A stretch of DNA of 64,000 nt from Prescottella defluvii (GTDB lineage: Bacteria > Actinomycetota > Actinomycetes > Mycobacteriales > Mycobacteriaceae), in contig CP121458.1 of NCBI GenBank assembly GCA_029690005.1, positions 4,481,872-4,545,871 of the forward strand, read 5' to 3'. The notes beneath the pieces were generated by a model. That model saw only the letters and a program-made list of their open reading frames with translations, searched no databases and was not told where the DNA came from. Below are positions 2,251 to 25,086 of the stretch, piece after piece (position 1 is the first letter of the stretch; every line of letters begins with the position of its first letter). The position numbers and the translations under genes were made by a program.

Positions 2251-3330
2251 GTTGATCGACCGACCTAAAAGGAGGAGCTTCAGTCGGTGATCCGGTGAGT
2301 ATCCAAGCATCGATGTCGGAGTGATCCCGCGCGTCGCAAGGAACGAGGTATCGGGCGGTTGACGGATTGGGGGCGTTCGGACGGATGAGTCCGACGGCAC
2401 CACGGCAACGACGAATCGACCGCAATCTCGCTATGCGAAACTGACCCGCATGGCGCTGTACTTTTCCGAGCGCGCACTGTCTGAAATCGGACCAGCGCAG
2501 ACCACGTACAAAGTCGATAGATCTATTTCGATCTCCAAGGTCGTGGGATTGAGTCGGACGGTCTCCCGGGAGATGCGCTCAAAGCCAGCAACCATCGTGA
2601 ATCAAACGGTGCGGCGAGCGAAGGGGCGTTCGTGGCAACGCCTCGGCGACGCGAAGAACGGTTCCCTCGTCAGGTTCAACACTCAGCGCCTTCGACTGGG
2701 CGCACTACCCATCCTCGGGATCGGAGGGCACACCGCCGAGGAGGAGCGTACTGGCGAACATCTCCTCTGGGCCATTATAGGAATTGCCGATGACGTGTAC
2801 CAACGCGACTGGATCGGCAACCGACACCGGTGGCCCGGCCGGGTGATGCTCGTGGGAAGTCGTGACGGACATTCAACTCTGAGAAACCAATTCACTCCTC
2901 CTTCGGCAGAGATGCCCCACCGCTATCCGCACAGTTTTCCGTCTTCGCCGGAATCGTTGTCGGAGGTGCTCGGCGGACTCCTCGATGTAGCCCCGAGCAC
3001 ATCCGAGACGAGATGGACTATCACCACTTCAGAACTCCCTACGAGATGGCAACCCAGGTAGCCGATCGGATCTTCGACCCGCCTGCCAATCCCTTCGGGT
3101 ACCGCGAATGCAGCGCGCACGTTTGGGCCTATACAAGCCACTGCGAACATTCCGTGGATGGCTCGAAGCTCTTGATCGTCCGCCCATCCTCATCGAAGAA
3201 CAGGACTGAGCGCGGGCACCCCGGTCGCTTCGGCGGTATCGGAGTGTCCGAGAGATCCGGATTGATAGAGTCTGGCGGGGTGAACGCGACCGCCGTCGGC
3301 CGCGAGATTCAACGACAACGGGGCGGTGAC

Positions 3331-6300
3331 GTGGCACAAGGCAGTGACCGGTGGGTCGAGGTGTCGAAGTCGGCGTTCGCCCACGAGGCCGAGGGTCTGA
3401 GCTTCCTCCAGGACATCGTCCCCAACGCCTCCCCGTATCGCGCGTGGACGAACTTCGAGTTCATGGACAACCACGGTCTCTGGCACGAGGTCGATGCCCT
3501 GGTCCTCGGTCGGCGTCGTCTGCATCTGATCGAGCTCAAGCATTTCGTGGGTCGTCTCGGAGGCACCGAGACGAACTGGGTGCGGCAGCTACCGAGCGGC
3601 AAGGTCCGCACCCAGCGCTCTCCCCTCCTCCTGACTCGCCGCAAGGCACAACGGCTCGCGACGCGCATCGAGGAGGAAGCCCGCAAGGTCGCGATCGCGC
3701 GCGGGCTCAATCCGGAGAAGGTGCGCCGGGCGCTGCCGTTCGTGCAGGAGTCGGTGTTCCTGCACGCCGAGGGTTTCACGGTCGACATGCCGGAGCTGGC
3801 GAAGTCGGGGCTGTTCGGCCTCGACGGCGACGAGCACGGGTCCCACCTGCCGGGTATCTCGACTCGTATTCTCGAGCCTCCGATCGACGGGCGACGTGTC
3901 GACGAAGACATGAGCGTAATCATTGCCCTCGCCCTCGAGAACCTCGGCATCTCCCGCCGCACCGAGCGCGAGGCCGGGTCGTGGACGATCTCGGGTGCCC
4001 CGCTGGCGTCGGGTGACGACTGGCAGGAGTGGCCGGCTAAGCACAAGGGCACCGACGAGCATGCCCGTGCCCGCATCGTCTCGTTCCGCCCGGGCACTCC
4101 GGCGCACGCCCGTGCGGCAGCGCATCGGAAGATGCAGCGCGAGTACACGCTGCTGTCGTCGCTGCGGCACGAGTCGATCGTGGCCCCCGCGACCTGGTGC
4201 AGGACGACCACGGCAATACGGTCCTCGTCTACCCGGAGACCCCGGGTACGAGCCGCTCGATCTGGCGTTGGCGACGCGCACCCTCACCGCCGAGCAGCAG
4301 TTGACGGTGTTGACGCAGGTCGCGGAGGCGCTTGCGTATGCGCACCGCAATCACGTCGCGCACCGCGGCCTCGGCCCGTCGACGGTGCTGATCCATACCG
4401 AGCGACTGGACGCGGGCCGGGTCGACGTGCGGCTGGTGGACTGGTCGTGGGCGGGGCGCATCCACGACGGAAACACCCGGTCTGCAACGATGCTCGGCAC
4501 CGCGGTCACCGCGACGGGCGGGGCGGCTGCGGACGAGGTGTATCAGGCGCCGGAGGACCGGTGGGCGCCGGATTCGGATCGCATCGCGCTCGACGTCTTC
4601 TCCCTCGGTTCCCTCGCGTACTTCCTGCTCTCGGGCGGGCAGAACCCGGCGCGCGACCGCGCGGCACTGCTCGAGCGACTACGAGTCGAACAGGGTCTGG
4701 ACCTGGCCGCGTCGACGGGACGGTTCGTCGACGAGCGACTGCGCGAGCTGGTGCTGCGGACGACCAGCCCGTCGGTGTCGAAACGCATTGGCATCGATGG
4801 GAAGTCGGGTCCGCCGACGTTCGGTGCGCAACAGTTCGCGGCCGAGCTGGACGCGTACCGGCGGGAGCAGGCACCGACCGCCGCCGTGCCGGAGATCGAC
4901 CCGCTGAACCCGCCGACGGGCGCGCTGCTCGACGACCGGTTCGAGGTGCTGCAGGTGCTCGGGTCGGGGTCCACGGCCCGCGGCATCCTCGTCGCCGACC
5001 ACGACCACGACGGCCGCCAGCGCGTCCTCAAGGTCGGTCTGGACGACACGGCGACCCATCGGCTGCAGGACGAGGCGGAGGTCCTGACGACGCTCGCCCA
5101 ACAGCAGCCGCCGGTGCCCGGCGTCGTCGAGCTGATCGAGGGCCCGCTGCAGCTGGCGCACCGCACCGCGCTGCTGCTGACCAACTGCGGCGAGCAGACC
5201 CTCGCCGACGTCATCCGCTACACCCCGCTCGGGGAGGCGCAGCTCAAGACGTGGGGCCTGGGCCTGCTGGACGCGGTCGTGGCGCTGGACACGGCGGGCA
5301 TCACGCACCGCGACATCAAGCCGTCGAACCTGGGGCTGTCCCGCCCGGACGGCAAGCGTTCGGCGAAGGCGCGGCTCGCGCTGTTCGACTTCTCGCTCTC
5401 GCGTGCCGCCGTCGAGCTGCTCGACGCCGGCACTCCCCGTATCGGGACCCGTTCCTCGGCACAGGGATCCGCACCGCCTACGACTCGGCGGCCGAGCGCT
5501 GATTCGGCGGCGGTGGTGCTGTACGAGATGGCCACCGCCAGCACCCCGCTCTACGGCGACGGGGTCAGCGACCCCCGGGTGCTCACCGACGACGTATCGG
5601 TGTCGGCGGAGGACTTCGGCGGCCACTCGCGCACCCGCGCGGAGGCGCTCGCCGGGTTCTTCCGCACCGCACTGGCCCGCGACGTGCGCGACCGGTTCGA
5701 CACCGCGACCGCGATGCGTAAGGCGTGGGCGGCGGTGTTCGCCGCGAAGGCCGTCCATCCCGAGCCCGCCTCCGCGGTGGTGCACGCGCCGGTCATCACC
5801 GCGACCGCGGAGGTGAACCCGCCCACGGTCGCCGTCGGGGAACCCGTCGCCACCTACGGTTCGTTGCAGGTGCTCGCGACGGAGTTCGCGCGCGCGTCGG
5901 CGACGAAGTCGTCGGCGATCCGCCGGCAGGTTGTAGAGCTGGTCCTCGGCAGCCACGACGCCGCGCCGGCCGACCCGTTCGTCACCTACCAGGTGCTGGC
6001 ACCGCTCGCCGGGGTCACACCGGGCCGCATCGCCCAGATTTTCGGCGAGCTGCGTGACCTGTGGGCGAAGAACCCGCAGTCGGCTGCGACCGTGGATTCG
6101 CTGTATCGACGCGGGCTCGTGCTGCTCGAATCGACTGGCGGCGCAAGCACTCCCGAGCTTCTCGCCCGCGAGCTGGCCGCCGCGCTGGACACGGACGGAC
6201 TGCGTGATCCGCAGCGCACCGCCCTCGGGGCGTTGCGTTTGGTCCTCGCATCGGCCCCGCCCGCCCCCGAACCGGAGCCCGGCGAGGAGGCGACGGACAC

Positions 6301-7471
6301 CGAGAGCCTCGACCTGCAGTTGGTGCGCCGCCAGTCGACGGGCACGGTCGCGATGATCGCGACGCCCGCGGTCGCGCGCCGCCTTCCCGCGGCCCTGGCC
6401 AGGGAGGCGGACGGCCTCGTCGCGGCCGCTGACGCTCAGGGTCTGGCGCTGGTTCCGCCGACGGACGCCGATCGGCCGCTGCGAGCGGCCGCGGCGGCGG
6501 TGCTCGACATGGCACCGGATCAGGTAGAGATCCCCGGTTACGCGCTGCTGCGGATCGCGGCCGCGTCTTCCGGCGAGGTGTCGCTGTCGGCGCGCGACGA
6601 GCTGCATGCGCACGCCCTCCCGATCCGCGACGTGTTGACACTGCTGCTGCGGGGCCTGTCCGATTCGGACACGTTCGGCCGGGCGGAGCTGGAATCGCGT
6701 GTCGCTGCCCGGTTCCCGGCGCGGGCGAAGGCGCTCCCCCGCCGCCCGGAGCTCGACGGTCTCGTCGCGGCCGTGGTGCCGGGGATGGCGTGGAGCGAGG
6801 AGCGCGGGCGCTACGAGTTCGAGAACGCAACGCAGCGGCTCTCGCACGTGCCCACCCTGCACACCCTCGCCGGTTCGCCTGCCGTCGCAGGCGGTTCCGG
6901 CAGCGATGTCGAACTGCTGCTGCAAGCCAGCATCCGGGAACGCACCTTCCGGGCGCTCGGGGTACCGATGGGCGCGTCCGATCAGGTGGCGGACGCACTG
7001 GTGGAGCGATTCGGGGCGGTGCACATTGACGTCACGGATGCGCTGCTGGACGAGCTGCGCTCGCGTGCGGAGCTGGCCGGCATTCCGTGGGACGCGATCC
7101 TCGCCGCCGACTCCGGCGCGGCCGCGGACCGAGAAGGCTTGAAAGGGTTTGTCGCACAGTCCATCCCGGCGGTCATCGACACCGTCAACTCGGCCGGTGG
7201 CCCGGTGGTACTGACCGACCTGTCGACGCTGGCGGCGTACGGGCAGCTTGGGGCGTTGCAGGCGTGGGTGGACGTGACGAATCCGCCGCCGCACGCGGTG
7301 TGGGCGCTTATCCCGCAGCCGGAGGAGTCCGGTGGCCGGCCAGGTGCTCGCGTCGACGGGACCGCGCTACCCCGTACCAGCCCGGAGCAGTTCGTGCAGG
7401 TGGACCGGCTCGGTCTGCGCGCACTCCTTGCCAGTAACGATGAGAAGCACACGATGAAGGAGCATGTCTGA
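3331..7471 (+). CDS. pglW: BREX type 2 / Pgl serine-threonine kinase PglW: N-terminal NERD-like domain plus two tandem protein-kinase domains. Two 1-bp frameshifts near 4192 and 4250.
   Basis: NERD-like motif DALVLGRRRLHLIELKHF. Kinase 1 has HRGLGPSTVLI...DWSWAG. Kinase 2 has GSGSTARG...HRDIKPSNLGL...DFSLSRA. Reading frame goes 1 to 3 to 2 across VAP|RDLVQDDHGNTVLVYPETPG|YEPLDLALA, consistent with two single-base deletions. Stop TGA overlaps the pglX ATG (TGATG). Start uncertain: ATG 3013 is the longest ORF, GTG 3331 lies just before the NERD domain. Confidence 0.8.
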
Positions 7472-10400
7472 TGGCGTTGGCCACGATCTCGGGAGCCGCG
7501 CTCAAGGATGCGCTCAAGCCGCAGCTGACGCTACTCGTCGACGACATGCGGACTCGCCTGACCGCCGACGCCGATGAGCTGGCACGCTGGCGGACCACGC
7601 ACCGCGCTGCCGTCGCCGAGAAGCGAACCGCCGTGTCGTGGACCGACTGGTCCGAGGATCAGCTCACCCAGGCCGCGGTCGGCTGGCTGCTCACGTCCGT
7701 GTTCGTGCGGTTCTGCGAGGACAACTTTCTCCTCGGCGATACCGCCGTCTGGATCACCCACCCCGACCCTATGCTCCGGCAGCGGGCCGTGGACGCCGAG
7801 CAAGCGTTCTACCGGAGCGATTCCGACAATTCGTACCGTGAGTGGCTCGAGCAGTCATTCGACGCACTCCGCGGGTTCCCGGCGACGCAGTCCCTCGTCG
7901 ACGAGCACGCGGCACTGAACATTATCGCGCCGTCGTCGGATGCGGTGCACCAGGTGCTGTCGTTCTGGCGGCAGGTCAATGAAACTGGTGAACTCGAGTG
8001 GACGTTTCGAGATCCCGAACTGTCTACACGCTTCCTAGGCGACCTGTACCAGGACCTGTCCGACTTCGCGAAGAAGAAGTACGCACTGTTGCAGACGCCC
8101 GAGTTCGTCGAGGAGTTCATCCTCGACCAGACTCTCGAACCTGCCTTCAAGGATCGGCCGCTGGAAGGGTTCAAGGTCATCGACCCGACGTGCGGGTCGG
8201 GGCACTTCCTGCTCGGCGCCTTTGCTCGATTGGTCGATCGGTGGCATCGGGAGGCCCCCGGGCTTGACCTGCGGACGCGGGTCGACAACGCATTGTCGTC
8301 CGTCTATGGAGTGGACTTGAACCCGTTCGCCGTGGCGATCGCCAAGTTTCGGTTGATAGTCGCGGCGTTGAAGGCATGCGGGGAAACAACTTTGGTGAAT
8401 GCGCCGAAGTTCGCGTTGAATCTCGCGAACGGGGATTCGCTGCTCCATGGGGCCGAGCAGGGTGGGGCGGCGGCCCTCGACTTCGGTGACCTGTCGTTCG
8501 ACAAAGACGCTGTGGTGTCGGGGTTCGCGTACTCGACCGAGGATGTGGCGCTGCTGCGGAAGATTCTCGCGCCGGGACAGTACGACGTGGTGGTAGGGAA
8601 TCCGCCGTACATTGTCGTTTCCGACAAGGCTTTGAACGCTCGGTACCGCGAGATCTACCACTACTGCAAGGGCAAGTACGCGCTCACAGCTCCATTCATG
8701 GAGAGATTCTTCGACCTCGCCAAGCCCGGCGAACGTGCGGGATGGATTGGGCAGATCACATCGAACTCATTCATGAAGCGGGAGTTCGGCGCACCGGTCA
8801 TCGAGGACCTACTCGCCAGGCTCGATCTCCGCCTCGTCGCCGACACGTCCGGTGCATACATTCCCGGCCACGGCACCCCGACCGTAATCATCGTTGGTCG
8901 CAACCACCCATCAGTCCACCAGAGTGTGCGCGCAATCCTCGGCATCCAGGGTGAACCGGGAGCACCCGATGATCCTGCCAGGGGCAAGGTGTGGACGTCG
9001 ATTGTCGAGCACGTCGACCAAGCCGGGTTCGAGAACCAATGGATCTCAGTTGCTGATCTCTCACGAGAGAACCTCAGTAAGCATCCCTGGAGCCTCAGCG
9101 GCGGCGGGGCGGTCGAGCTCCTGAACACAATTGAAACCGCAAAGATCGGTCAAGTCAGTGACCGAGTCACCTCTATCGGATCGACAGCCATCACCGGCGA
9201 CGACGATGCCTTCGAGTTCGGACGAACCTCACCGCCGCGTATCCGCATCAACGAGATCCCGACTCGACCCTTTATCACCGGAAGCATGATCCGGGATTAC
9301 TGCATCTCCGAGCCACATAATGTCATTTACCCCTATGGCGATTCTGGCCCGGCCCTTAACGACGCAGCGTCGGATCAAATCGAGAGATGTATGTGGCCAC
9401 TGCGCACTGGCCTCGCACGCGGCCTCGCGTTCGGAAAGACGCGTGCCGACAAGGGGATGCGATGGTACGAGTACATCCTCCCGAACCACCCACGCCTCGC
9501 ATCCTCCATGCTGATCACGTATGGCTTCATCACGACTCATCCTGGGTTCGTGCTCCATCGTGGAGGAAGGTCATCAACCACTCCGCGATGGTCTTATCCC
9601 TCGGCGATCTGCAATCCGAGGACGATCACCTGCGGCTGCTGGGCACCCTCAACAGCTCGACCGCCTGCTTCTGGCTCAAGCAGAACAGCCACAACAAGGG
9701 CAGTACTGTCGACTCGTCGGGAGCTCGCACCACACTGTCGGAGTGGGAGAACTTCTTCGAGTTCACCGGGACGACGCTGAAGGACTTCCCACTCCCGAAG
9801 TCGGCCCCGCTCAACCGTGCTCGCCTCGTCGACGAGCTTTCGCAACAGCTCGCAACCCAGGAACCCTCCGCCACGATCGAAGCGAACGGGGGCAGCATCG
9901 CGGTCATCGAATCTGCGAGAGCTGAGCACGCCCGTATCCGCGCTCTCATGATCGCCGAGCAGGATGAGTTGGACTGGGAGGTGTACCGGAACTACGGACT
10001 TGTCGACGAGGAGCTGTTCCTGCCTGTCGGCCAGGCTCCCGGGATCGCGTTGGGTGAGAGGGCATTCGAAATCGCGCTCGCCCGCAAGGTTGCGACCGGG
10101 GAGGCGGAGACCTCATGGTTCGAGCGCCATGGGTCCACGCCCGTCACAGAGATTCCCGCGCACTGGCCAGCAGAGTACCGGGACCTGGTGGAGAAGCGTT
10201 TGCAAGCGATCGAATCGAACCCATTCATCCGGCTGTTGGAGAAGCCGGAGTACAAGCGGCGGTGGGCTGGGGACTCGTGGGATGTGAAACTTTCCCGTGC
10301 GCTCAAGGACTGGCTGCTCGATCGACTCGAGGACAAGTCGCTGTGGTTCACCACGCAGGGCACCCCGCAGATGTTGTCCGTTGCCGAGCTCGCCGGGCAT

Positions 10401-11090
10401 GTGGAGAAGGACCCCGAGTTCATCACCGCACTCGACCTGTGGGCCGGAAAGAAGGACGCGCCAGTCACCGAGACACTGGTGAAGGTGCTCGCTGATGAGG
10501 CAGTGCCGTATCTGGCGGCGATGCGCTACAAGGACTCCGGTCTGCGTAAGCGCGCGGAGTGGGAGCGGGTGTGGGATCTGCAGCGTGACGAGGACGCCGG
10601 GCTGATCAAGGCGACCGACATTCCGGTGCCACCGAAGTACACCAGCGCCGACTTCCTCAAGTCGTCGTTCTGGAGTCACCGCGGCAAGCTGGATGTGACG
10701 AAGGAGCGCTTCATCTCCTACCCCGGAGCCGGCCGCGCCACCGACCCGACGCCGCTGTTGGGTTGGGCGGGTTGGAATCACGCGCAGCAGGGCCTCGCCC
10801 TGGCAACGATCTACGCATACCGCGAGTCCGAGGGCACGGCGCTCACCGAGCTCGTCCCGGTAGTCGCCGGCATCGCGGAGATTCTCCCTGGGTCAGGCAA
10901 TGGCATTCCGGCGTCGACCCCACCTTCGGCATCGACCTCGCCGACTACCTCACCGGACAACTCAACGAAAAGTCGGCAGCAGTCGGAGTCCCCGTCCCCG
11001 ACCTTGGCAACTGGCGTCCCCCAAGACAACTCGCGGCCGCAAGACCAAGGTGGGGTGAGTCTGTCGGACCCATCGGGCATCATCCGGTAG
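7471..11090 (+). CDS. pglX: BREX adenine-specific DNA methyltransferase PglX/BrxX. One 1-bp frameshift near 9562.
   Basis: Motif I DPTCGSGHFLLGAF. Motif IV VVVGNPPYIV. Conserved BREX-MTase C-terminal half (EDDHLRLLGTLNSSTACFWLKQ, WENFFEFTGT). Frame 1 to frame 3 at HRGG|KVINHSAM: ggaggaaagg appears to have lost one a. Confidence 0.85.
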
Positions 11091-11247
11091 TCACATGAGG
11101 AGGCAGTGGGCACCGTTGCCCACGGCGCAGTACCGAACGGAGCACTATGACCCGGACCGTCTTCCGGCGAGAAGCCTGTAGCCCCAAACTCTGCGCGACG
11201 CGAAGTGTCGCACAGCGGACAGCCGTCCTCCGTGCGGCGACAGTTCG

Positions 11248-11703
11248 ATGATTGCCCTCACCGAGGCGGTCGGGCCATCACTGATTCTTCTACTGACAGT
11301 GATCGTATTGCTGCTCACGTCGCGAAGGACCTTCTCGTGGCCACAACCTGAAACGTGGGTTGATAGCTCGTCTTTCGTAAGTGCCCCATCAGGCCGGAGC
11401 GACGACCTGGAGATCGCACTTGAGACCGCAGCTGCCGTGAACTCATACAATGTGCATGCAGAGAACGATCCGCGTGTCCGCCTTCAATCAGCAGTCAGGC
11501 TGAGACCTTCGGACTATCAAGTAGCGATCCGCGACATATCACGTCACTTCCGAGAAGGTCGAGTTGTGTCACTTGACCTTGCAGGCATGGATCCTCCGCA
11601 GGCCGCTCGACTTGTCGATTTCTGCAGTGGAATGACGACAGTCGCATCCGGCTGGATATTTCGAGTAACGGACAGAGTTATAGTTCTCACACCATCTACA
11701 TAG
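11248..11703 (+). CDS. Membrane-anchored SepF-domain (DUF552) protein: N-terminal TM helix, linker, C-terminal SepF core
   Basis: C-terminal 65 aa (PSDYQVAIRDISRHFREGRVVSLDLAGMDPPQAARLVDFCSGMTTVASGWIFRVTDRVIVLTP) matches the SepF core position by position, following the pattern P..Y..A..I......VV..L.....QA.RLVDF.SG.....G.I.R......TP. N-terminus LILLLTVIVLLLTS is hydrophobic. TTG start. AT-richer than its flanks. Intact. Confidence 0.7.
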   Translation: MIALTEAVGPSLILLLTVIVLLLTSRRTFSWPQPETWVDSSSFVSAPSGRSDDLEIALETAAAVNSYNVHAENDPRVRLQSAVRLRPSDYQVAIRDISRHFREGRVVSLDLAGMDPPQAARLVDFCSGMTTVASGWIFRVTDRVIVLTPST

Positions 11704-11756
11704 GCCGAATCCACGGACAGCCCTGTCAATTTCTATGATTCTAGCGGAGGGTTCCA

Positions 11757-12629
11757 ATGACTTCGATAGCAAATCTCGATGACTCTTACGGAGAAATCCC
11801 TTCAACTCCGATAAATGAGCAACTACTGACCCTCAATCACCAAATTCGGCAAACGGAACACTCACTGGCTGTGGCGCAGCGCAGAAACAAATGGCTCAAG
11901 TTGTCCTTGATATTTGGACCACTACTGGCAGTTCTCCTGTACTGCATCCCGTGGATCCCAGGGATTCCCACAAGGGTGTTAGTGGCCGCGTTCATTCCAG
12001 CGATACCGTTCTCCATCGCATTCTGCATCGCCGCGTACCGTCTGAACAAATACCCAGGCGGACCCGCCAAACCCGGCAGCCGAGGCAAAGAGCGAGTTAG
12101 CGAAGGACAGATCGAACTCCAGCTTGCACTCCAACGCGAAACCAGAAAGTCATTTCTTGCCAGCGCAGATATCCCAACTAGAGTTCGTCGAATCACCTAC
12201 AAGGAAGATGCTTACTCGGATATCGATCAACTTCGAATCGAGAGTAATCGCTATCGGCAAGTCAACAACTTCCTGCAGGGGATCCTCATAATCGGTTCAC
12301 TGGCCGCAACAGCTGCAGCAGGAATTGCGTCGGAAGTCCCCTCACTAAGGTGGGCCACCCTGGTTATTACATTCACGGTCGGCTTGTCCAGTGGGTTCAT
12401 GGGGTACTTCAAGTACAAGGAACGCAGCTTCTACCTTCAGCAAACAGCCGACGCAATTGAGCATGAGTGGGAAGCTTTCGACATTGGGGTCGGTCGCTAC
12501 AAACGGATCACCGATGAAGATGAACGGCTCGCAGAATTCGTCGAGGAAGTGCATCGCCTCAAGTCCGAACAGAAGAAGCGTCAGCAGAACTTGGAGCAAC
12601 CGCCAGAATTGCGCAATACGAACGATTAA
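11757..12629 (+). CDS. 4TM protein with two SLATT/DUF4231-like halves (candidate pore-forming effector)
   Basis: Two TM hairpins (LSLIFGPLLAVLLYCIPWIP / VLVAAFIPAIPFSIAFCIAAY and ILIIGSLAATAAAGIAS / WATLVITFTVGLSSGFMGYF), each followed by a helical cytoplasmic segment. After TM4, KYKERSFYLQQTADAIEHEWEAFDIGVGRYKRI...LAEFVEEVHRL fits the DUF4231/SLATT post-TM signature. 54 bp downstream of the SepF-like gene, same strand. Low GC. Intact. Confidence 0.55.
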   Translation: MTSIANLDDSYGEIPSTPINEQLLTLNHQIRQTEHSLAVAQRRNKWLKLSLIFGPLLAVLLYCIPWIPGIPTRVLVAAFIPAIPFSIAFCIAAYRLNKYPGGPAKPGSRGKERVSEGQIELQLALQRETRKSFLASADIPTRVRRITYKEDAYSDIDQLRIESNRYRQVNNFLQGILIIGSLAATAAAGIASEVPSLRWATLVITFTVGLSSGFMGYFKYKERSFYLQQTADAIEHEWEAFDIGVGRYKRITDEDERLAEFVEEVHRLKSEQKKRQQNLEQPPELRNTND

Positions 12630-13087
12630 TTCGAAAACCCGAATTGTCCTTTTTTAGGGGGCCTGACTCCACGCGCAGGTGGGTCGAGCCTCCACTGACA
12701 TTGGCTCTGAATCAGCTTGCATGACAGCGCCTTCGCCGATGTCCTAGAAACCCGCACGAAGCCGGCAAGGTGGGCTCGTCAATCTTGGGCGGGCAACCCG
12801 GAATCCGGACTTCATTCTGATTGCCCGAGCAAAGTCGATGCGCCATTGAGGACAAACACCATCGCCGGCGCCAGGCCGCGCCAGGCTCAGCCGTAAAATC
12901 CAGTCGAATACGAGACTATTTTGACCACAATAAGCGGTCAGTTTTCCTGACCTAGCTTTTCACCTGAGCATGCAGGAGTACCCTCAGACTGTGGCGGAGT
13001 TCGGAAACCGCAGGCCTTCAGGAAACCCGAATCGGCTGAGAGCGGCGAGCCGCATGCACTCTCGATTGGGACGGACCGCAAAACTGC

Positions 13088-16000
13088 TCACGTGGTAGCC
13101 CTGATCATCGAGCCAGAGGCGGTTAATGGCGTTGACTGGTGCAACTGAAAACCCATTGCAAGTTTGGCGGGGTTCGGCCCAACGCGATAGCAGTTAGCGT
13201 TGGAGCACGAGGTGGATCCAGGCGGAGGGTTGTCAGTTCTACAACTCAGACACATCCACCCCGGCAATGCCTGGCCGGCGATTCTGTTCAGAATTACTGG
13301 CAGATCTGCTGGTCGACAGCGGACAACACGCCTGACCGCTGCCTCCTGGACATACCCATCCTTATCGTCCAGGAGCGCGCGAAGTTGATTGCTGACCACG
13401 TCTCCGCTCATTACATCAATCATGTCCGCCGCAACGGTACGTAATACTGGATCGTCGCTAGCGGTCCAGCATTCTGGCTCTGGTCCGGACTCAAGTGACG
13501 CCAAGGCGATCGCCGCCATCCGCTGGTGCTGCGTGCTGACAACGAGCCTAGGCAACAGGGCCCGCAATCGAGGTGCTGCCTCATCGACGACGGTAGCTTT
13601 CCACAGCGACCTGGCTGCAAAGTTCGCCTGACCGATTCCGAGGGTGAACAGCCGTGTCAGCAGCTGCACTGAGGCCTCCGGTGACCTCACTTCGCACCAG
13701 TCAGGATCATCACGTTCTCGCGAGTTGTCGAAGAGGGCGAAGTACGGGTCTGTCCCACCCCAACGCTCCATTCGGTCCAGAACCACCGTCGCTTGACTTG
13801 CGAGTACGCCTCGGTCGAAATTGTATAGTGTCGCTGCAAGCTCGATAAGGTCTCGGAGAAATGCATCACTCTGCCGGTGCAGGTGCTGAACTCCGCCATC
13901 GTTCATTTGAAGTGTCGCGACGAAGTCAGCTAGCTCACTGAGAAGTGTTGCCTGCGCGGTGGTCAGCTCAGCCGGCGTCCCGGCAGCAGCAACCAGTCGA
14001 ATGAATTGCGCGTAGACGTCCTCGTCATAGTCTGCCCACCACGTCGGGAATCTCACCTCTCCAGCGATCTTCGCTGCATCCTCATGGACAAATCGAACGT
14101 CGACTTCGCAGCCCTTGTCAGCGAGGAGCTGTGTGAGGGAATCTCGAAGACCCTGGGGTGCGCCAATGGCACATGCGGCAACGTGCGAAGATGCACCGGG
14201 CACATTCTCCAACAGTACTTCAGCAGCCTGGAGTTGCGTGCTAGCCAGGGTTCGGTCGACGAACCAAGCGGAAGGGAGAACGCTACCCGCTTCACCCGAC
14301 GAAGGCCGATCAGGCAGAGAACGCAGAGCGAGTACCTCTTCCAATAATTGAGAGTGCCTCGCGTCAAAGGTCTGGTGATCGAACTGAACTACTATTGACG
14401 CACGTGCGACCATTGCGTGCTCCGGGCCGTGCGTTTCGGCAGCCGCTTCTGCTGAATCCCAGAGCTCAACGGGGAGAGGCAACCTCGTCAGCGCCTCCCA
14501 GCTGTTCCATCCTTCCTGTGTTCCTTCCGCGACGTGAGCAATCAAGCTCTCGCCGACCAAGCGGACCATATCTTCGTCGAGTTCAGCTCCTTCCCTGAGT
14601 GCTTGGGCGATAGCGCTCGCCAATGTGGAGTTACCAGGGTTAGCCTTTAGCGCGTTTGCGGCAGTCCTCGACACTGCCGAGTCGAGGGCGCATGCAAGGA
14701 CTAGCGGCTCCATCTGCTGGCCAGCGATCCGCGCCTCGACCCATGACTGAATCTCGTCCGGTCGAGAAGTGATCCGAATGGCGTCGCCGATCTCCGCAAA
14801 TAGCGCAATTCGCGGGACAACAGTTTCCTCAGCACCAGACAGCACGAAGATGCCGGATTCATCGAACAGTCGAACTGCATCCTCTGCAGCAGTTGCAGCC
14901 TGCGCCGACGGAAGTCCCCAGGGTTCGCGCATCTCATCAGCGATGGCGTTTACGACTGATTGTGCGTTGGCTTTTCCCTCACTGTTCTGAATATGCGCCG
15001 CTTCGCTTACGAACGCCTGCATAATTGCTTTATTTAGAGCACGGCCACCGAGCGGACCCAGCGAACGTCCGCCGCCGCGCTGTATCTCTCGCCCAACTAT
15101 GACTTCCTTGACAATTGCCTCCAGTATTCGCGCGCGTCGCCGAGGGAGCCGCTCGGTAGTTCTCCGCACAGCGAGGAGAGACAACAGAATCGACATAAGA
15201 GGAGTTTCACGAAGCACGTCGTCCTCGGACAGGGCTGAGCGAACCCACACCGAACGCTCGCTGATCCAGCCTGGCCGGTCGACGGCATTCGGCACCGTCT
15301 TAGCCGCTGCGACCTCAAGAACAGCAGCTATCGTCGTTGCAGCATCGGAGGGTGGACGCAAGTGCACCGAGGTCCATTCGAGGCTAGCTGCCTGACCATA
15401 GGCGACATCGCGAGTCGCCAAGAGGACACAAACACCTTCCGGCAGATCCGCAACGAACGAAGATATCTCGCTGACCACATCGGAACGTCGGTCATATGTC
15501 TCATCTAATGAGTCGAGTAGTAGAGCAACGTTGCCATCGTTATCAAGTCGTTCATTTATCTCGGAAGTAAGCACATCCCGATCCGAAGGCCTCATGTCTC
15601 GCACACAAGCGGCGATGAGCCGGTCCCTGAAGCTCATAGTCGAACTGAGCGCGTCGACCTGACGGAGAGAAACGCGCACCGGCAGAGGGAACGTCGGATT
15701 CAGAGCGAGCTGGGCCGCCAGGCGCCTGAGGGCAGTGGACTTTCCGCCACCAGGAAGCCCGGTCAAGATGACACGGCCGCGGCGAAGAAATGCCCAGATG
15801 AGCTCGCGCTCACCGTGATCGCCACTCGGATCCGTGGCAACCCTGATACCCGCATCCGCCTTGTCAAAAGGGATAGCGGGGAGCTCCGCGCCAAGCGTGC
15901 GCAAATCGATCACCGAGCCATCGCGTATCAAAGTCGCACTGTATCGCTCAAGCGCCTGTCGCCGAATCTCGAGCGTGGCCGCAGGAGAACTTCCATCGCT

Positions 16001-16618
16001 GTTAATCCTCATTCCTTCACCGTGCAGGGCGGCAAGCCAACCAGCGAGGTCATATCCTCCTCTCCGTCGAGCCGTGCGTCCCGAAAGTGTCGTTAGTGTT
16101 GCCCATGCCTTTCGTGCCGAATCATGGCCGCCACCGGAGACGACATGGCGCAGGTGATCGATGGCTTGCTGTGATCCAGGCTCGTCTGGCTCTTCCGCCT
16201 TGAGCTCCCAAACAACTGCACACTTCAGCACCTTCTGACGGTCGGCTTCATCAAGGTCGACGAGAAGCTTCCGGACTACCGCAAGTATCTTTGCTTCGCC
16301 CGCCGTGGGAGAGCCCGGATGATCGGTCCGTTCGCGTTCCAATACCTGATGGAGCAATCGCATCGGGCCACTCAGTGCGCCCGCAACGACTACAAGACGA
16401 TCTGTGGCGGGATCGAGCCCTTCTCCTGCAATCTTCACCCACTGCGCGACGGCCTCCTTCAACGCCTTTCCAGCGTTAAGGGTCCGCTTGGCCTGCACGA
16501 AAGCGCGCCATCCCGAGTCGAAGGTGATCGCTATGTCGTCGACTGAGCTATCGGTCTCTAGTGACACCGATGCCACCCGCGCGTGGGCGGGAGGGATTCC
16601 GACACCCGGAAGTGACAC
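13088..16618 (-). CDS. NACHT/STAND NTPase: unknown N-terminal domain, P-loop NTPase, helical/HEAT-repeat C-terminal region, terminal RanBP2-like zinc ribbon
   Basis: Walker A ILTGLPGGGKSTALRRL. Walker B NVALLLDSLDE. HEAT/PBS-lyase-like repeats (LRALLDDKDGYVQEAAVRRVVRC). C-terminal WMCLSCRTDNPPPGSTSCSNANC. ORF open from 16873; in-frame GTGs at 16618 and 16576 are more plausible starts. Intact over about 3.6 kb. GC clearly lower than the BREX genes. Confidence 0.75.
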   Translation of the reverse strand: MSLPGVGIPPAHARVASVSLETDSSVDDIAITFDSGWRAFVQAKRTLNAGKALKEAVAQWVKIAGEGLDPATDRLVVVAGALSGPMRLLHQVLERERTDHPGSPTAGEAKILAVVRKLLVDLDEADRQKVLKCAVVWELKAEEPDEPGSQQAIDHLRHVVSGGGHDSARKAWATLTTLSGRTARRRGGYDLAGWLAALHGEGMRINSDGSSPAATLEIRRQALERYSATLIRDGSVIDLRTLGAELPAIPFDKADAGIRVATDPSGDHGERELIWAFLRRGRVILTGLPGGGKSTALRRLAAQLALNPTFPLPVRVSLRQVDALSSTMSFRDRLIAACVRDMRPSDRDVLTSEINERLDNDGNVALLLDSLDETYDRRSDVVSEISSFVADLPEGVCVLLATRDVAYGQAASLEWTSVHLRPPSDAATTIAAVLEVAAAKTVPNAVDRPGWISERSVWVRSALSEDDVLRETPLMSILLSLLAVRRTTERLPRRRARILEAIVKEVIVGREIQRGGGRSLGPLGGRALNKAIMQAFVSEAAHIQNSEGKANAQSVVNAIADEMREPWGLPSAQAATAAEDAVRLFDESGIFVLSGAEETVVPRIALFAEIGDAIRITSRPDEIQSWVEARIAGQQMEPLVLACALDSAVSRTAANALKANPGNSTLASAIAQALREGAELDEDMVRLVGESLIAHVAEGTQEGWNSWEALTRLPLPVELWDSAEAAAETHGPEHAMVARASIVVQFDHQTFDARHSQLLEEVLALRSLPDRPSSGEAGSVLPSAWFVDRTLASTQLQAAEVLLENVPGASSHVAACAIGAPQGLRDSLTQLLADKGCEVDVRFVHEDAAKIAGEVRFPTWWADYDEDVYAQFIRLVAAAGTPAELTTAQATLLSELADFVATLQMNDGGVQHLHRQSDAFLRDLIELAATLYNFDRGVLASQATVVLDRMERWGGTDPYFALFDNSRERDDPDWCEVRSPEASVQLLTRLFTLGIGQANFAARSLWKATVVDEAAPRLRALLPRLVVSTQHQRMAAIALASLESGPEPECWTASDDPVLRTVAADMIDVMSGDVVSNQLRALLDDKDGYVQEAAVRRVVRCRPADLPVILNRIAGQALPGWMCLSCRTDNPPPGSTSCSNANCYRVGPNPAKLAMGFQLHQSTPLTASGSMIRATT

Positions 16619-17210
16619 TCCAGCGAGACCACACGCGACCGCGTATGCGGCAACCCCACGACGGTATTCAGTTCCTCCATCGCCGGATGCACCTGCGATA
16701 CTCCCGGGTCGCGCGATAGACCTACAATCCACGGCCAAGAATATATAGGTAGGCGCCGTACAGCGGAACAGCTCGCGGCGTGGACCTAATCTGTGTCTCC
16801 AGTCGGTCACGATCACCCGCTGGCGTACTTGAAGCCACCGTGGGCCAGGACCGCGTACACGGTTCGGCCACACCGATCGACCCGGGTGACAAAGCTCCCG
16901 ATCCGTGACCTGCGCTACCTTGTTGGCAGGCTCGTTCGGCTACGCAGGGCGATCGCCAATATTTCACGGGAGAAGGAATGGGCGCATGCTCTGTCGCCCT
17001 GTCTTTAATTGCTACAACACCTGATTTCGCCCGAGCAAGGGCGTTTCATGTGCGAGCTATGGCGGCGTACGCCCAACATGAACCCGCTGTACAGACCCGG
17101 CAGACCAAATGTGGCCGAGGCCCGTGGCACGATGTAGCTTGCGCGGAGCCGACTCGTTCCCCCACACACCACCAGGCCAGATTCCCGCCCGAACGGAGTT
17201 TTTAACCACA

Positions 17211-20200
17211 ATGTTCCCGGCGCCACGTCCAGCTCCGCTCGTACGCTGCGCGAGACCTTCGACATCCCGCAGACCCACGGCACAAACGACTATGTGCTGC
17301 GACTGTCGGACTCCGTCGCCGACGACCAGCTGGCAGCCACCGTCGACTCCTACGTCGTCACCCCCGCTATCGCGGAGGCGTTCGACCGGGCGCTGGCCGT
17401 CGTCGAGGAGTCGCTGAGCAGCGGCGAGAACAAGGCCGCCTACCTCAACGGTTCCTTCGGCTCCGGTAAGTCGCACTTCATGGCGGTGCTGTACGGCGTC
17501 CTCGGGCACTCCCCCAAGGCGCTGTCGGTCCCGAGCTGCAGCCGATAGTCGCCAAGCATCCGCAGATCGCCGGCGCGAACCTGCTGCGACTGACGTTCCA
17601 CTTCCTCGACTCGACGACCATCGAGTCGGCCCTGTTCGAGCAATACCTGCGCCAGATCGCGCGGCTGCACCCGGACGCACTGCCGCCGGTTCTGCACTCC
17701 GCGGGCGGGCTGTTCACCGACGCCGACAACCGTCGCGCCGAAGTCGGCGACGAGAAGTTCTTCGCCACCCTCAACGCGGCCGGCGGCACCACCGCGTCCA
17801 CAGGCACCGTCAACTGGGCCGCGCTCGGCGCCACCACCGGTACCTGGACCGCCGCCACCTACGCCGCGGCCACCGCCCCCGACGCCGACCCCGCCGAGCG
17901 GGCCCGGCTACAGCAGGCGCTGATCGCGTCCTACTTCACCAGCTACTCGCGCAACACCGACTGGCTGTCCCTTCGAGGACGGGCTCGCGGTCATCGCCGA
18001 CCACGCCAAGTCCCTCGGCTACGACGGCGTCGTCCTGATGCTCGACGAGCTGGTGCTGTGGCTGACGTTCCTGATCACCGAACGCGAACGCTTCAACGCC
18101 GAGGTGCAGAAGATCACCAAGCTCGTCGAGACCAGCCGCGGCCGGCGCGCCGTCCCGGTCGCATCGTTCATCGCCCGCCAGCACGACCTGTCCCGCTGGG
18201 TCGCCACCGGCTCGGATTCCGGCGCCACCCAGCAGGCGCTCGAGCAGGCGTTCGCGCACCAGGCGGGCCGCTTCGGCAACGTCGAGCTCGGCGACGAGAA
18301 CCTCCCCTTCATCGCAAAGAGGCGACTCCTGCAGCCCCTGGGCCCCGACGCGCAGGCCGCACTCGACGCTGCGTTCGCCCGGCTCGACCGCAACCCGCAG
18401 GTGTGGGACGTGCTGCTCGACGGTGTCAACACCGACGACCAGCACCGCGGCTCCGATGCCGACGCCTTCAAGCTCACCTACCCGTTCTCCCCCGCCCTCA
18501 TCGCGACACTGCGCGCCCTGTCCGGGCAGATGCAGCGCGAACGCACCGCGCTAAAGGTGATGCAGCAGATGCTGCAGGACTCCGCCGACCGGCTCACCGT
18601 CGACCACGTGATCCCCGTCGGCGAAGCCTTCGACTACGTCATCGACAGCGCCAACTCCACGCCCATCAACGACGCGGCCGCGCAGACGTTCAAGACCGCG
18701 CGCACCCTGTGGACCGAGAAGCTGCGACCCCTGCTGTTCCGCAACGCGGGCGTCGACGAATCGGTGTCCGACGACCAGGTGCCGCCGGGGCTGCGCGCCG
18801 ACATCCGCATCGCCAAGACCCTGCTGATGTCCGCTGTCGCCCGAACGTGCCCGCACTCAAGCAGATCGACGCCGGACGGCTTGCGTCCCTCAACCATGGC
18901 AGCGTCGTTTCCCTGATCCCCGGCGACACCGTCGGCCAGATCACCAACAAGGTCAAGCAGTGGGCCGCGGAGATCCCCGAACTGTCCGTGACCTCGGACC
19001 AGAACCCGATCATCTCCGTCACCCTCGAATCCGTCGACTACGAACGGATCATCACCCGCGCACAGGGCGAGGACACCGACGGCCGCCGCCGCGAACTGAT
19101 GCGATCACTGCTCGGCGAACACTTCCGCGTGCTCGGTGCCGAGCGCACCCTCGACGACGCCCTGCTGCGGACCGTCGTCTGGCGCGGCACCGACCGACCC
19201 GTCGAGGTAGTGTTCGGCAACGTCCGCGACCGCGGCTACCTCTCCGACGACCGGTTCCGCCCCGTCACACCGGGCGCGCTGCGGCTGATCGTCGACCTGC
19301 CGTTCGACGACCCCGGTCACACCATCACTGAGGACCACGACCGCATCTCGGAGCTCCTGCGCACCGGGCAGGACCGCTTCACCGTCGCATGGCTACCGAC
19401 CTTCTTCCCGGACAAGGTGGTTCGCCAGCTCGGTCGACTCGTCGTCCTCAACTACGTCCTCGCCGGTGAGCGCTGGGCCACCTACGCCAACGAACTGTCC
19501 GAGGGTGACCGGATCGCCGCCCGCTCGATTCTCGAGCAGCAGCAGTCCCAGGTCCGCGGGCAGCTCGGCAACGCCATCCAGGTCGCCTACGGCACCGCCT
19601 CCGGGGCCAAGTTCCCGAGGGCCAGCCGCCGCTGCGGTCGTTGCACGCCGGGTTCACCGCGCAGCCGCCGATCGGCAACACCCTCGGCGAGGCAGTCGAC
19701 CGGCTCATCGGCGACACATTCGACGCCCTCTACCCCGACCACCCGGACTTCAGCCCGGCGGACGCACTGATCACCCGCCGCGACCTCAACACCGTCCTCA
19801 CCCGGTTGCGGGAGGCACAGTCCAGATCGACGGACGCATCCCCCTCGAAGGCGGCGCCCGCGGCGACCGCGACATCGCCCGACGCGTCGTCGAGCCACTC
19901 GGCATCGCGAAGGTCAACGAAACCCACCTCATCTTCGGGCCGGAACAGTTCACCGCCTGGCAGACCCGCATCACCCAGGAACTCGCGCGGCTCTCGATCG
20001 ACGAGCAGGGCGACGTCGACATCGACGTGCTCCGCACCGCGATCAACGCCAGCGGCCCCAAGCGCGGTCTCACCCCCGACATCGTCGACCTCATCGCGGC
20101 GGCCTGGGCGGCGCAGACGAAGCGATCCTGGTTCCTGCACTCGTCGCCCACCACCGAGGCGATCATCGGTGATTTCCGCCGGGCACCACCCTGCGGCTCG

Positions 20201-21006
20201 AGCCGCTGCCGGAACGGCAGACGTGGACCGACGCCGTCACCCGCTGGAAGTCGTGGACCGGGCAGACGGTCAACGAGTACCTCACCGCAACCAACCTGGC
20301 CGCATTCGCCGAGCAGGTCCGCGACTTCGCCCGGTCCGGTTTCGCCGGCCGCGGCCAATTCGTCTCCGCGCTCGGGCAGGCCTACAACTACTTCGGCCTC
20401 GACCCCGAGGTGGGCCGGCACGCGCTCGCCTCGGATCTTCTCGATCTGTTCGAGGCGCGTCTCGCGCACGTCACCAACCTCGACCTGGTCGCGGCCGTCG
20501 CGGGAGCGTCGTTGCGTGGCAACGACATCGAGGCAGGGAAGTCGCTGGCTACCGCCGACGCCGTCGAACAGGCACTGCTGCGGTATCCGCTGACCCGCTG
20601 GAACGTCCTGAGGGAGGCTGCAGCAGGCTCGGACGAACGAGCCGTGCAGGCCAAGGCGATCCTCACCGATCTCGCGAAAGCGGTGCAGGCGCAGGAGTTC
20701 ACCCAATCGTTGTCCACCTCGCTGGCCGCCGCCGACCGTGCCCGCGACACCTGGCTCGAGGCCGCGGTGATCGTGACGCCGCCCCCGGTCGTCCAGCCGC
20801 CGGTGACACCGCCCCCGGTCATCCAGCCGCCCGCGACGCCACCAAACAACCCGGACGACATCCCGCTACCGCCACCGGCTCCCACCGAGACGTTCACGGT
20901 CACCGGCGCGAACGCCACCTCGGCCGTCGAGGCGCGCCTCGCCGCCCTGCTCGCCAACTACCCGAACGACGAGTTCACCGTCACCATCACCAGGGTGCCG
21001 CGATGA
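17211..21006 (+). CDS. pglY: BREX ATPase PglY/BrxC, multiply frameshifted (at least 5 single-base indels)
   Basis: BrxC N-terminus incl. [16 protein letters not shown] Walker A. Collinear BrxC-like segments continue through ORFs 18038-18916, 18058-19770, 19466-20593, 19641-..., 20410-21006. Frame switches near 17527 (ccc gag to ccgag), 17975, 18855 (gcc ccg to gcccg), 19620, 19810 and 20180. C-terminal Pro-rich repeat [22 protein letters not shown]. Start approximate: an early shift near the ATG at 17211 is likely. Confidence 0.8.
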
Positions 21007-23797: not shown

Positions 23798-25086
23798 GCG
23801 GGCTGTCGCCGGTGCGCCGCCGGGAGATCCTGCAGTCGCTGCGTCAGGGCACCGTCCCGGACGGCAACCTCGACGTTCTCGCCGTCGGTATCGACCGGTT
23901 CGCGAGCACCGTGGACGCGGACCTCGACGCCGTCGCCGCGGGCGGTTCGCTGTTCAAGGCGGTCCGCGGCGAGTACGGCTCAGGCAAGACGTTCTTCTCC
24001 CGGTGGGTCGAGCAGCGCGCGATGCGCCGCGGCCTGGCCGTCGCCGAAGTACAGATCAGCGAACTCGAGACGCCGCTGCACAAACTGGAGACCGTGTACC
24101 GCCGCACCATCGAGGAACTGCGCACCTCGGCCTTCGCGAAGAGCGCGTTCCGGCCGGTCATCGACGCGTGGCTGTACGGGATCGAGGAGGACGCGGCCAC
24201 CGCCGCCGGGGTCGACGAAGCCACGTCGGCGCAGGTGGAAGAGCTGCTCGAACAGCGACTCGCGTCGGTGGCGACCGCCACCCCCGTGTACCCGATGGTG
24301 TTGCGCGCGTACCGCTCCGCGCTCGAACGGGAGGATGCCGCCACCGCCGACGCGCTCATCGCCTGGCTCGGCGGACAACCCCATGTCGGTGCTGCGGCGA
24401 AGCGCACCGCCGGGATCCGACAGGACGTCGACCACTTCCTCGCGATGGGCTTCCTGCAGGGTCTGCTCGCCGTCCTCAAGGGCGCCCGGCACCCCGGTCT
24501 CGTCCTCGTCATCGACGAGGTCGAGACCCTGCAGCGGATGCGCAGCGACTCTCGCGCCAAGGCCCTCAACGCGTTGCGGCAGTGGATCGACGAACTCGAC
24601 TCCGGCCGCTACCCCGGCCTGTACCTGATGATCACCGGCACACCGGCGTTCTTCGACGGCCGCTCCGGTGTACAGACGCTGCCGCCCCTGGCGCAGCGGC
24701 TGCACACCGACTTCGGCACCGACGCCCGCTTCGACAACCCGCGCGCGCCGCAAATCCGGCTCACCGGCTTCGACCTGGACCGGCTCGTCGAGGTCGGCAT
24801 CCGCGTGCGGGACGTCTACGCCGACGGCTCCGCCGCTCCCGAACGGGTGTGCCGCCTCGTCGACGACGCCTATCTGCGCGACCTGGCGTCCGCGGTCGCC
24901 GGTGAACTGGGCGGGAAGGTCGGCGTCTCGCCACGGCTGTTCCTCAAGAAGCTCGTCGCCGACGTCCTCGACCGCGTCGACCAGTTCCCCGATTTCGATC
25001 CGCGGCAGCACTATTCGCTCACCATCGCGGACACCGAGAAGGCGGAGGCGCTACGCGCCGCCACCGCCGACGAGGTGGAGCTGTGA
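23794..25086 (+). CDS. brxD: BREX ATP-binding protein BrxD (DUF2791 P-loop)
   Basis: GTG overlaps the pglZ stop (GTGA). Walker A RGEYGSGKTFFS. Walker B LVLVIDEVE. About 430 aa. Intact. Confidence 0.8.
   Translation: MSGLSPVRRREILQSLRQGTVPDGNLDVLAVGIDRFASTVDADLDAVAAGGSLFKAVRGEYGSGKTFFSRWVEQRAMRRGLAVAEVQISELETPLHKLETVYRRTIEELRTSAFAKSAFRPVIDAWLYGIEEDAATAAGVDEATSAQVEELLEQRLASVATATPVYPMVLRAYRSALEREDAATADALIAWLGGQPHVGAAAKRTAGIRQDVDHFLAMGFLQGLLAVLKGARHPGLVLVIDEVETLQRMRSDSRAKALNALRQWIDELDSGRYPGLYLMITGTPAFFDGRSGVQTLPPLAQRLHTDFGTDARFDNPRAPQIRLTGFDLDRLVEVGIRVRDVYADGSAAPERVCRLVDDAYLRDLASAVAGELGGKVGVSPRLFLKKLVADVLDRVDQFPDFDPRQHYSLTIADTEKAEALRAATADEVEL

Follow-up and report, generated by a model that had tools for sequence, protein, structure and literature searches.

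A membrane-anchored SepF-like gene paired with a SLATT-domain gene in a mobile cassette of Actinomycetota

A stretch of 64,000 nucleotides from Prescottella defluvii (contig CP121458.1, positions 4,481,872 to 4,545,871; referred to hereafter as the window, in whose own numbering positions are given) was found to carry a small gene for a SepF-like protein with a transmembrane (TM) anchor, followed on the same strand by a gene for a SLATT-domain membrane protein. Of 22 related loci, 21 hold both genes together, with neighbourhoods that are unrelated to one another, and the sequences indicate that the pair is a self-contained, horizontally mobile two-gene membrane module of Actinomycetota. Our preferred reading, held with moderate confidence, is that a SLATT pore effector is controlled by a membrane-tethered SepF-fold dimer, in a module of the conflict or abortive-infection type. 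An earlier note on the same DNA had singled out the SepF-like gene; the conserved pair as a functional unit did not figure in it.

The layout of the SepF-like gene was drawn from hydropathy, from the alignment of homologues and from an AlphaFold2 (AF2) model with its predicted local distance difference test (pLDDT) scores; aa denotes amino acids.

11248–11703 (+): SepF-like gene, the first gene of the cassette; 151 aa from an ATG, with a single-pass TM anchor and a SepF-fold domain predicted to be cytoplasmic
11254–11331 (+): N-terminal TM helix, aa 3–28 (hydrophobic core aa 7–25), then R26-R27; from hydropathy, AF2 and alignment
11332–11397 (+): variable, low-confidence linker between membrane and SepF domain, aa 29–50; pLDDT about 50 or lower, columns unconserved
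11398–11439 (+): acidic amphipathic helix, aa 51–64, specific to the family; a helix in AF2, pLDDT 80–88
11494–11697 (+): SepF core, aa 83–150, beta-alpha-beta-alpha-beta-beta, with RLVDFxSG, G128, G-W136-I-F138-R and I145

The open reading frame (ORF) has an in-frame stop 22 codons upstream, with no alternative start codon between that stop and the ATG. The Pfam SepF profile, PF04472 (DUF552), matched aa 85–150 at E = 2.4e-13 and 50.5 bits against a cutoff of 27 (profile positions 4–68 of 72). The solved SepF chains of Bacillus subtilis and Corynebacterium glutamicum matched the same residues by sequence in phmmer, and a profile of the SepF-like family matched SepF chains in the Protein Data Bank (PDB) at E = 1e-8. 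The motif residues of SepF are present position by position: P87, Y90, A93, I97, V106-V107 and L111, then Q118-A-A-R-L-V-D-F-C-S-G128, G135-W-I-F-R139 and T148-P149. The AF2 model, built on 35 homologues, had a mean pLDDT of 83 (92–98 in the core), and Foldseek superposed that core on 3zih (B. subtilis), 6scs (C. glutamicum), 3p04 and 6sat at 0.8–0.9 Å over 68–69 residues, with TM(target) scores of 0.75–0.94. The earlier note had read the SepF core motif from the letters; profile and structure alike now place the protein in DUF552/SepF.

The note had also proposed a hydrophobic TM helix in place of the usual amphipathic one, and this was borne out. The 19-residue segment AVGPSLILLLTVIVLLLTS has a Kyte-Doolittle mean of 2.37 and a low hydrophobic moment, as compared with a mean of −0.4 and a high moment for the amphipathic helix of B. 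subtilis SepF. Of 35 homologues, 32 kept the N-terminal pattern, GPSL followed by hydrophobic and then basic residues; among the other three, at least P0022 comes from a gene call that lost the N-terminus, and the remaining two (116 and 123 aa) also look truncated. The uniformly hydrophobic segment of 19–25 residues, with basic residues after it, is conserved family-wide, and the positive-inside rule suggests an N-out, C-in orientation that would put the SepF domain in the cytoplasm. Within the linker, pLDDT falls below 50 at residues 37–45. Around the helix that follows, L54 is invariant in the alignment of homologues, and L58, A61 and N65 are at least 90% conserved.

The second gene, with its ribosome-binding site, was laid out as follows.

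11746–11751 (+): Shine-Dalgarno-like GGAGGG, 5 nt before the start codon of the SLATT gene, read from the sequence
11757–12629 (+): SLATT-domain membrane protein, the second gene of the cassette, a predicted pore-forming effector; 290 aa, 4 TM segments
11892–12044 (+): TM hairpin 1 of the SLATT protein (aa 46–66 and 72–96); from hydropathy, AF2 helices 17–66 and 72–98, and conservation
12204–12590 (+): SLATT domain proper, aa 150–278, with TM hairpin 2 (aa 172–191 and 199–218); from NCBIfam, invariant columns and AF2

The note had called this downstream protein pore-like, and its domain assignment agrees: NCBIfam SLATT_1 (NF033634) matched aa 150–278 at 80.7 bits (cutoff 41), and Pfam DUF4231 matched at 29.6 bits. 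The protein is 100% identical to WFR71711.1 of Prescottella defluvii. AF2 models it (pLDDT 80.6) as helical throughout, the helices forming two TM hairpins and long cytoplasmic stretches. A conserved cytoplasmic helix, aa 17–45, precedes TM hairpin 1 and ends in a basic run, and conservation is very high in the cytoplasmic C-terminal region (GFMGYFKYKERSFYLQQTAD...EVHRLK.EQKKRQQNLEQ). By the positive-inside rule, the soluble parts of both the SepF-like and the SLATT protein are predicted to lie in the cytoplasm. The SLATT protein had no fold match in the PDB at E ≤ 0.001, and neither cassette protein is related in sequence to any known holin (E = 0.22 for the best holin family in Pfam). The actinobacterial FtsZ tail reads D-V-P-P-F-M-R-R, and the loop ADIPTRVRR of the SLATT protein (aa 137–145) was considered as a mimic of it; the candidate was rejected, since D-x-P is unconserved (other rows read NVTDIEVRR, NLDTKIRR and GVHMNVRR).

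Pairing was assessed from both sides. Starting from the SepF-like gene, 15 of 16 family loci have a SLATT gene, 53–71% identical to that of the window, directly downstream on the same strand. Starting from the SLATT gene, a SepF-like ORF was present upstream in all four loci (L025, L026, L029 and L030, from Saccharopolyspora, Salinispora, Micromonospora and Glycomyces). The order SepF-like to SLATT holds in 21 of 21 pairs, always with short gaps; the gap here is 53 nt, and this, with the similarly short same-strand gaps in homologous loci, fits an operon. The two genes co-diverged (Mantel r = 0.50, p = 0.003). Mean pairwise identity was 59% for SLATT and 37% for the SepF-like protein, as would be expected if a conserved effector were coupled to a regulator that evolves faster.

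The exact SepF-like protein is not in a collection of 15 billion proteins, though its SLATT neighbour is, and the gene is apparently uncalled in the public record of P. defluvii. A homologous ORF in Micromonospora sp. WMMD1120 (L029, 8721–9002) is likewise uncalled as a gene, so that annotation pipelines seem to overlook this small low-GC gene. At least two public genome annotations lack the gene, so surveys that rely on annotation do not see the pairing.

The residues through which SepF contacts FtsZ were compared in 99 family members aligned with 47 canonical-type SepFs (45 database sequences together with those of B. subtilis and C. glutamicum). K125 and F131 of C. glutamicum SepF contact the FtsZ C-terminal tail, and F131A alone drops the affinity for the tail from 15 to 340 µM (Sogues et al., PMC7118173). 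The C. glutamicum construct spans aa 63–152, and its ungapped phmmer alignment (query 97–145 to chain 21–69) equates K125 with R139 and F131 with I145 of the SepF-like protein. The last 14 residues of the C. glutamicum row were checked through the published numbering alone; the B. subtilis row and the 45 database sequences agree independently.

Position 145 (C. glutamicum F131): Phe in 45 of 45 canonical-type sequences; I, L, V or M in 95 of 99 family members
Position 139 (C. glutamicum K125): R or K in 45 of 45 canonical-type sequences; R in 73 of 99 family members and Q, C, L or H in 22 of 99
Position 138: E or D in 39 of 45 canonical-type sequences; F or Y in 83 of 99 family members
Position 136: variable and polar in canonical-type sequences; W in 87 of 99 family members

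The dimer-helix motif RLVDFxSG is kept in both groups. G128, which aligns with G109 of B. subtilis (the 3zii G109K chain has K in that column), is Gly in 96 of 99 family members and 45 of 45 canonical-type SepFs. These comparisons suggest that the fold, and probably the homodimer, were retained, with the FtsZ-tail pocket remodelled and new hydrophobic surfaces acquired. Canonical FtsZ binding by the SepF-like protein appears unlikely on the same grounds and is disfavoured. The suggestion in the earlier note that the protein recruits or sequesters FtsZ is weakened by the exchange of the contact Phe, while the basic contact residue for the most part stands.

The family shares with canonical SepF (YlmF, PF04472; 3zih, 6sat/6scs) the core fold, the RLVDFxSG helix, the equivalent of G109 and the P..Y..A..I and LTP motifs, and like it is membrane-associated, with a flexible linker, on the cytoplasmic face. 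It differs in its anchor, a true TM helix rather than an amphipathic one, in the aliphatic residue that stands for the FtsZ-contact Phe, in new signatures at W136, F138, C126, R84 and S108, in the extra acidic helix at aa 51–64 and in lacking the C-terminal alpha3. The genetic setting differs too. Whereas canonical sepF lies in the division and cell wall (dcw) cluster beside ftsZ, ylmD/E, ylmG and divIVA, the SepF-like gene is found outside it, paired with SLATT, mobile, rare and low in GC. No division-protein Pfam family was present among the called genes listed at the related loci; here the flanks are pglX and the SLATT and NACHT genes. With its invariant Phe lost, a new aromatic patch and an extra conserved helix, the SepF domain appears to have been repurposed.

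The inference of the earlier note that the gene is a laterally acquired, low-GC copy was confirmed and extended to the pair. GC content is 0.526 in the cassette of the window and 0.687 in the rest of it. Cassette GC was 49–54% (GC at third codon positions, GC3, 0.43–0.63) in 15 of 17 loci drawn from L001–L016, L025, L026 and the window, with flanks or hosts mostly at 61–75%, and host-like GC3 was seen only in the L012 and L016 copies. This uniformity is striking given that the copies are only 37–59% identical to one another; Lsr2-type silencing or constant turnover may be entertained as ideas for it. No low-GC donor lineage for the cassette was found. In a profile search of 1.84 billion representatives, full-length matches, spanning TM helix, extra helix and core, came from about 100 clusters (at 50% identity); beyond these, matches cover the SepF core only. 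About 10 family loci were present in 185,579 species genomes, all in Actinomycetota (Sphaerisporangium, Marinitenerispora, Nocardiopsis, Actinorhabdospora, Actinoplanes and several metagenome-assembled genomes).

Neighbourhoods differ at every locus and are often mobile or defence-like. They include HigB/helix-turn-helix (HTH) and PIN toxin-antitoxin genes, RloB with AAA_21, a PLD-helicase with DUF3427, transposases, and the RepSA, Xis and Int genes of an actinomycete integrative and conjugative element (AICE). PADLOC, run on 69 neighbours, gave matches to MADS, Tmn, pVip, DolB and PDC-M37B, along with two integrases. The Salinispora cassette lies between a NUDIX gene and the AICE RepSA/Xis/Int genes (L026, 6521–13354), and a RepSA gene also stands near the cassette of L004 (1–461), from which it follows that the pair can travel as AICE cargo.

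The earlier note had raised the possibility of a phage-derived anti-division factor captured by the island, and the searches spoke against it. A set of 50,697 phage records yielded a single weak, core-only match to the SepF-like family and no family copy. No relative of either cassette gene was found in 2.9 million viral contigs, the SepF-like protein had no match in PHROGs, and BFVD held no viral fold match for it at E ≤ 0.001. Among 72,556 plasmids there was no copy of the cassette family; plasmids and chromids yielded canonical SepF genes only.

A third conserved component and control elements were sought around the cassette. A k-mer search of the 300 nt upstream in 16 loci returned GC-rich noise and no shared element, Rfam over 10900–13300 gave nothing at E ≤ 1, no meaningful direct or inverted repeats flank the low-GC segment, and promoter and terminator scans at the cassette stayed at shuffle level. 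Control through TTA codons (bldA-type) was rejected, as TTA counts are irregular and zero in many loci.

SLATT proteins are predicted pore-forming effectors, lethal to the cell or arresting its growth, in CBASS, DRT10/UG17, AbiA and RADAR-type systems, and the toxicity of DRT10 needs intact SLATT (PMC9226505; bioRxiv 10.64898/2026.04.29.721553). An effector-plus-regulator module fits these data: the putative effector is conserved, the first gene evolves faster, both soluble parts are predicted to share the cytoplasmic side, the cassette is mobile, and its neighbours are frequently defence-like or mobile. The SepF-like protein would homodimerize helix to helix, as SepF usually does, at the cytoplasmic side of the membrane and would regulate SLATT as gatekeeper or antitoxin, as trigger sensor, or as both. 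It would keep SLATT closed in the absence of a cytoplasmic signal. A phage product, or some change brought about by infection, is the most plausible such signal; it would shift the binding or oligomeric state of the SepF-like protein, upon which SLATT would assemble and permeabilize the membrane, with an outcome of the abortive-infection type. The aromatic patch W136/F138 and the extra helix are candidate surfaces for a new partner, either the cytoplasmic helices of SLATT or the trigger. Physical interaction of the two proteins, their sensor and effector roles, pore formation and a role in defence are all proposals. Domain identities, TM anchor, pairing and gene order, co-divergence, mobility, low GC, restriction to Actinomycetota and the altered FtsZ-contact residue are, by comparison, established.

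Known SLATT-effector systems (CBASS with SLATT, DRT10/UG17 reverse transcriptase with SLATT, AbiA-SLATT, and RdrD of RADAR) resemble the cassette in having a multi-TM SLATT protein in a tight operon with a partner, in being mobile, modular and often in defence islands, and in that SLATT is the more conserved member. The partner in the cassette is instead a small, non-enzymatic, membrane-anchored SepF-fold protein and not a cyclase, SLOG, TIR or reverse transcriptase, and the cassette SLATT carries one more TM hairpin at its N-terminus, along with long cytoplasmic helices that are conserved. No relevant paper in the full-text literature joins SLATT or DUF4231 with SepF, DUF552, YlmF or PF04472, although the supplementary contexts of the founding SLATT paper may hold one; SLATT and SepF were mentioned together only in a paper on another subject, YukC of the B. 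subtilis T7SSb, and SepF was found together with 'abortive infection' in no paper. A SepF-fold, non-enzymatic partner for a SLATT effector module is unprecedented within the searchable literature.

Several observations weigh against a SLATT module under SepF-like control. In known SLATT systems the pore has a nucleotide-signal enzyme or a reverse transcriptase as its partner, and the cassette has neither: a nucleotide- or nucleic-acid-signal partner (SMODS, SLOG, TIR or reverse transcriptase) was conserved in none of the 22 loci. PADLOC v2.0.0 matched neither cassette protein at E ≤ 0.01. The Sphaerisporangium locus L008 (5959–6453) holds an intact SepF-like gene of 164 aa beside an insertion sequence (IS) transposase, with no SLATT gene, which shows that a cell can at least tolerate the SepF-like protein without its partner; this locus is either a disrupted cassette or a sign that the SepF-like gene by itself is harmless. 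Three cassettes (L001, L025 and L030) sit among ordinary metabolic genes, and the defence-like neighbours are given as locus listings. The basic FtsZ-contact residue, R139, is mostly kept and may allow some FtsZ binding. Finally, the family is known from sequence and models.

R139 bears on an FtsZ-directed module, an extended form of the idea in the earlier note, in which the TM-anchored SepF-like dimer binds the FtsZ tail and either sequesters FtsZ and blocks division or guards the divisome. The guard form would have a phage division inhibitor displace FtsZ, the SepF-like protein shift in oligomeric state and SLATT open. The fold is genuinely that of SepF, with the dimer helix and G128 kept, and most members have a basic residue in alignment with K125. 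The polymerization of C. glutamicum SepF responds in opposite ways to FtsZ-tail binding and to membrane binding (PMC7118173), which would provide a natural switch, and canonical-type SepF domains occur fused to caspase domains, that is, in death-effector contexts. The residue at 145 is, however, aliphatic in nearly all members, at the very position where F131A is so costly, and the changes at 136, 138 and 139 mean that the strand bearing the K125 contact, one of two proven, has been systematically remodelled. We regard this module as improbable.

The caspase fusions were met among soil-metagenome proteins (P0243, at L027 137–1792, and also P0281 and P0237). Proteins of 551 and 449 aa join a caspase domain (Peptidase_C14) to two tandem canonical-type SepF domains, and another joins an HTH_31-like N-terminus, below threshold, to two SepF domains. 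The SepF domains of the fusions keep the aromatic FtsZ-contact residue, and the caspase proteins may be FtsZ-directed or Z-ring-recruited proteases. Like the cassette, they lie outside the division cluster and join SepF to what may be a death effector or a regulator. They differ from it in that their SepF domains are canonical-type, with aromatic and acidic residues kept (GTIERLTNKVFLLTP), soluble, arranged in tandem, and fused rather than operonic.

A bolder form of our preferred reading, which we rate as a long shot, is that an immune pore has taken over the SepF fold as its sensor or scaffold, tethered to the membrane. The dimer would monitor a cytoplasmic peptide ligand and, through a dimer-polymer switch, nucleate SLATT assembly. 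That ligand could possibly still be the FtsZ tail, or else a protein by which a phage imitates or attacks this tail. If this were true, the caspase-SepF fusions would be a second example, and actinobacteria would possess a class of defence systems, previously unrecognized, that derive from the divisome or guard it.

A plain addiction module, of toxin-antitoxin type, would have SLATT as toxin and the SepF-like protein as its neutralizer, and would stabilize islands or integrative elements rather than act against phage; we give it the same low standing as the FtsZ-directed module. The genes are small and co-directional, and the first evolves the faster; this, with the low GC, the patchy distribution and the placement of the pair within or beside AICE-type elements (RepSA, Xis, Int) and beside transposases and further toxin-antitoxin pairs, is in keeping with it. 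The logic is that of membrane toxin/regulator pairs (type II-like toxin-antitoxin or holin-antiholin), in which two small adjacent genes encode first the regulator and then the membrane-damaging protein. The cassette departs from such pairs in having no holin relation and no phage copies, and in that the putative regulator is a folded, membrane-anchored oligomerization domain, which is atypical of an antitoxin. The total absence of the pair from the plasmids searched also counts against addiction. By sequence this module is inseparable from a defence system, and many toxin-antitoxin modules are abortive-infection systems.

Still less credence is due to a membrane or envelope function outside conflict, with the SepF-like protein an accessory paralogue that acts with its partner in septation, sporulation or membrane remodelling in some actinomycetes. 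Actinomycetes carry several SepF paralogues, which counts in favour of such a role, as do the loci among housekeeping genes. SepF polymers, moreover, remodel membranes (PMC7118173). An envelope function is poorly matched, however, by the rarity and patchiness given above, by neighbourhoods that are never conserved, by foreign composition in 15 of 17 loci, by the lack of linkage to the dcw cluster, and by a partner whose family is otherwise known as death effectors.

Weakest is the proposal that the cassette is an accessory component of the surrounding Pgl/BREX system, a very unlikely one that has its location between pglX and pglY/pglZ in its favour and is effectively refuted by the absence of pgl and brx genes from all 21 other loci, the cassette also differing in GC from the pgl genes and sharing the gap with an unrelated convergent NACHT gene. 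The claim that the SepF-like gene is embedded in BREX stands in the physical sense (the system is Pgl/BREX type 2) and fails as a functional link. With 21 other loci free of pgl, the cassette is better regarded as an autonomous unit carried along in variable regions.

Few predicted death effectors of bacterial immunity are as widespread as SLATT proteins, and how they are gated has been stated as an open question (bioRxiv 10.64898/2026.04.29.721553). If SLATT is indeed controlled by a SepF-like dimer, the cassette offers a minimal system for such control, with one small, non-enzymatic partner of known fold for which solved structures and mutational data from SepF exist. The cassette also presents a domain until now regarded as a dedicated FtsZ anchor in apparent reuse outside cell division, its FtsZ-contact Phe systematically replaced.

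A second, distant SLATT paralogue was seen in Saccharopolyspora flava (L025, 12882–13712), with 39% identity over the SLATT domain. It lies about 4 kb downstream of the cassette, is followed by a 295-aa gene and has no SepF-like partner.

PADLOC identified PglW, PglX, PglY (BrxC-PglY), PglZ, BrxD and BrxHI around the cassette, which sits in the gap between pglWX and pglYZ; pglX ends at 11090, and pglY/pglZ begin at about 18 kb. PglW, PglX, PglY and PglZ are each split across two reading frames (3013–11090 and 18058–25086). For PglX, profile positions 3–690 fall in the ORF 7471–9780 and positions 690–1132 in the ORF 9387–11090, with the switch near 9567–9571. The split frames reflect either a decayed Pgl system or indel errors in a long single-contig assembly.

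The same gap, and the same low-GC segment, also holds the convergent gene for a NACHT/STAND P-loop NTPase (13088–16873, − strand, 1261 aa; Pfam NACHT, 35.9 bits), which has a weak PADLOC match to PDC-M54A as well and is probably an independent, Avs-like defence gene. An adjoining ORF (17057–17680, − strand, 207 aa) had no family match. At the edge of the window, an ORF that enters at 1–2250 (+ strand) matched ZacC in PADLOC at 703 bits (profile positions 285–1016 of 1019), which places another defence-type gene upstream of Pgl.

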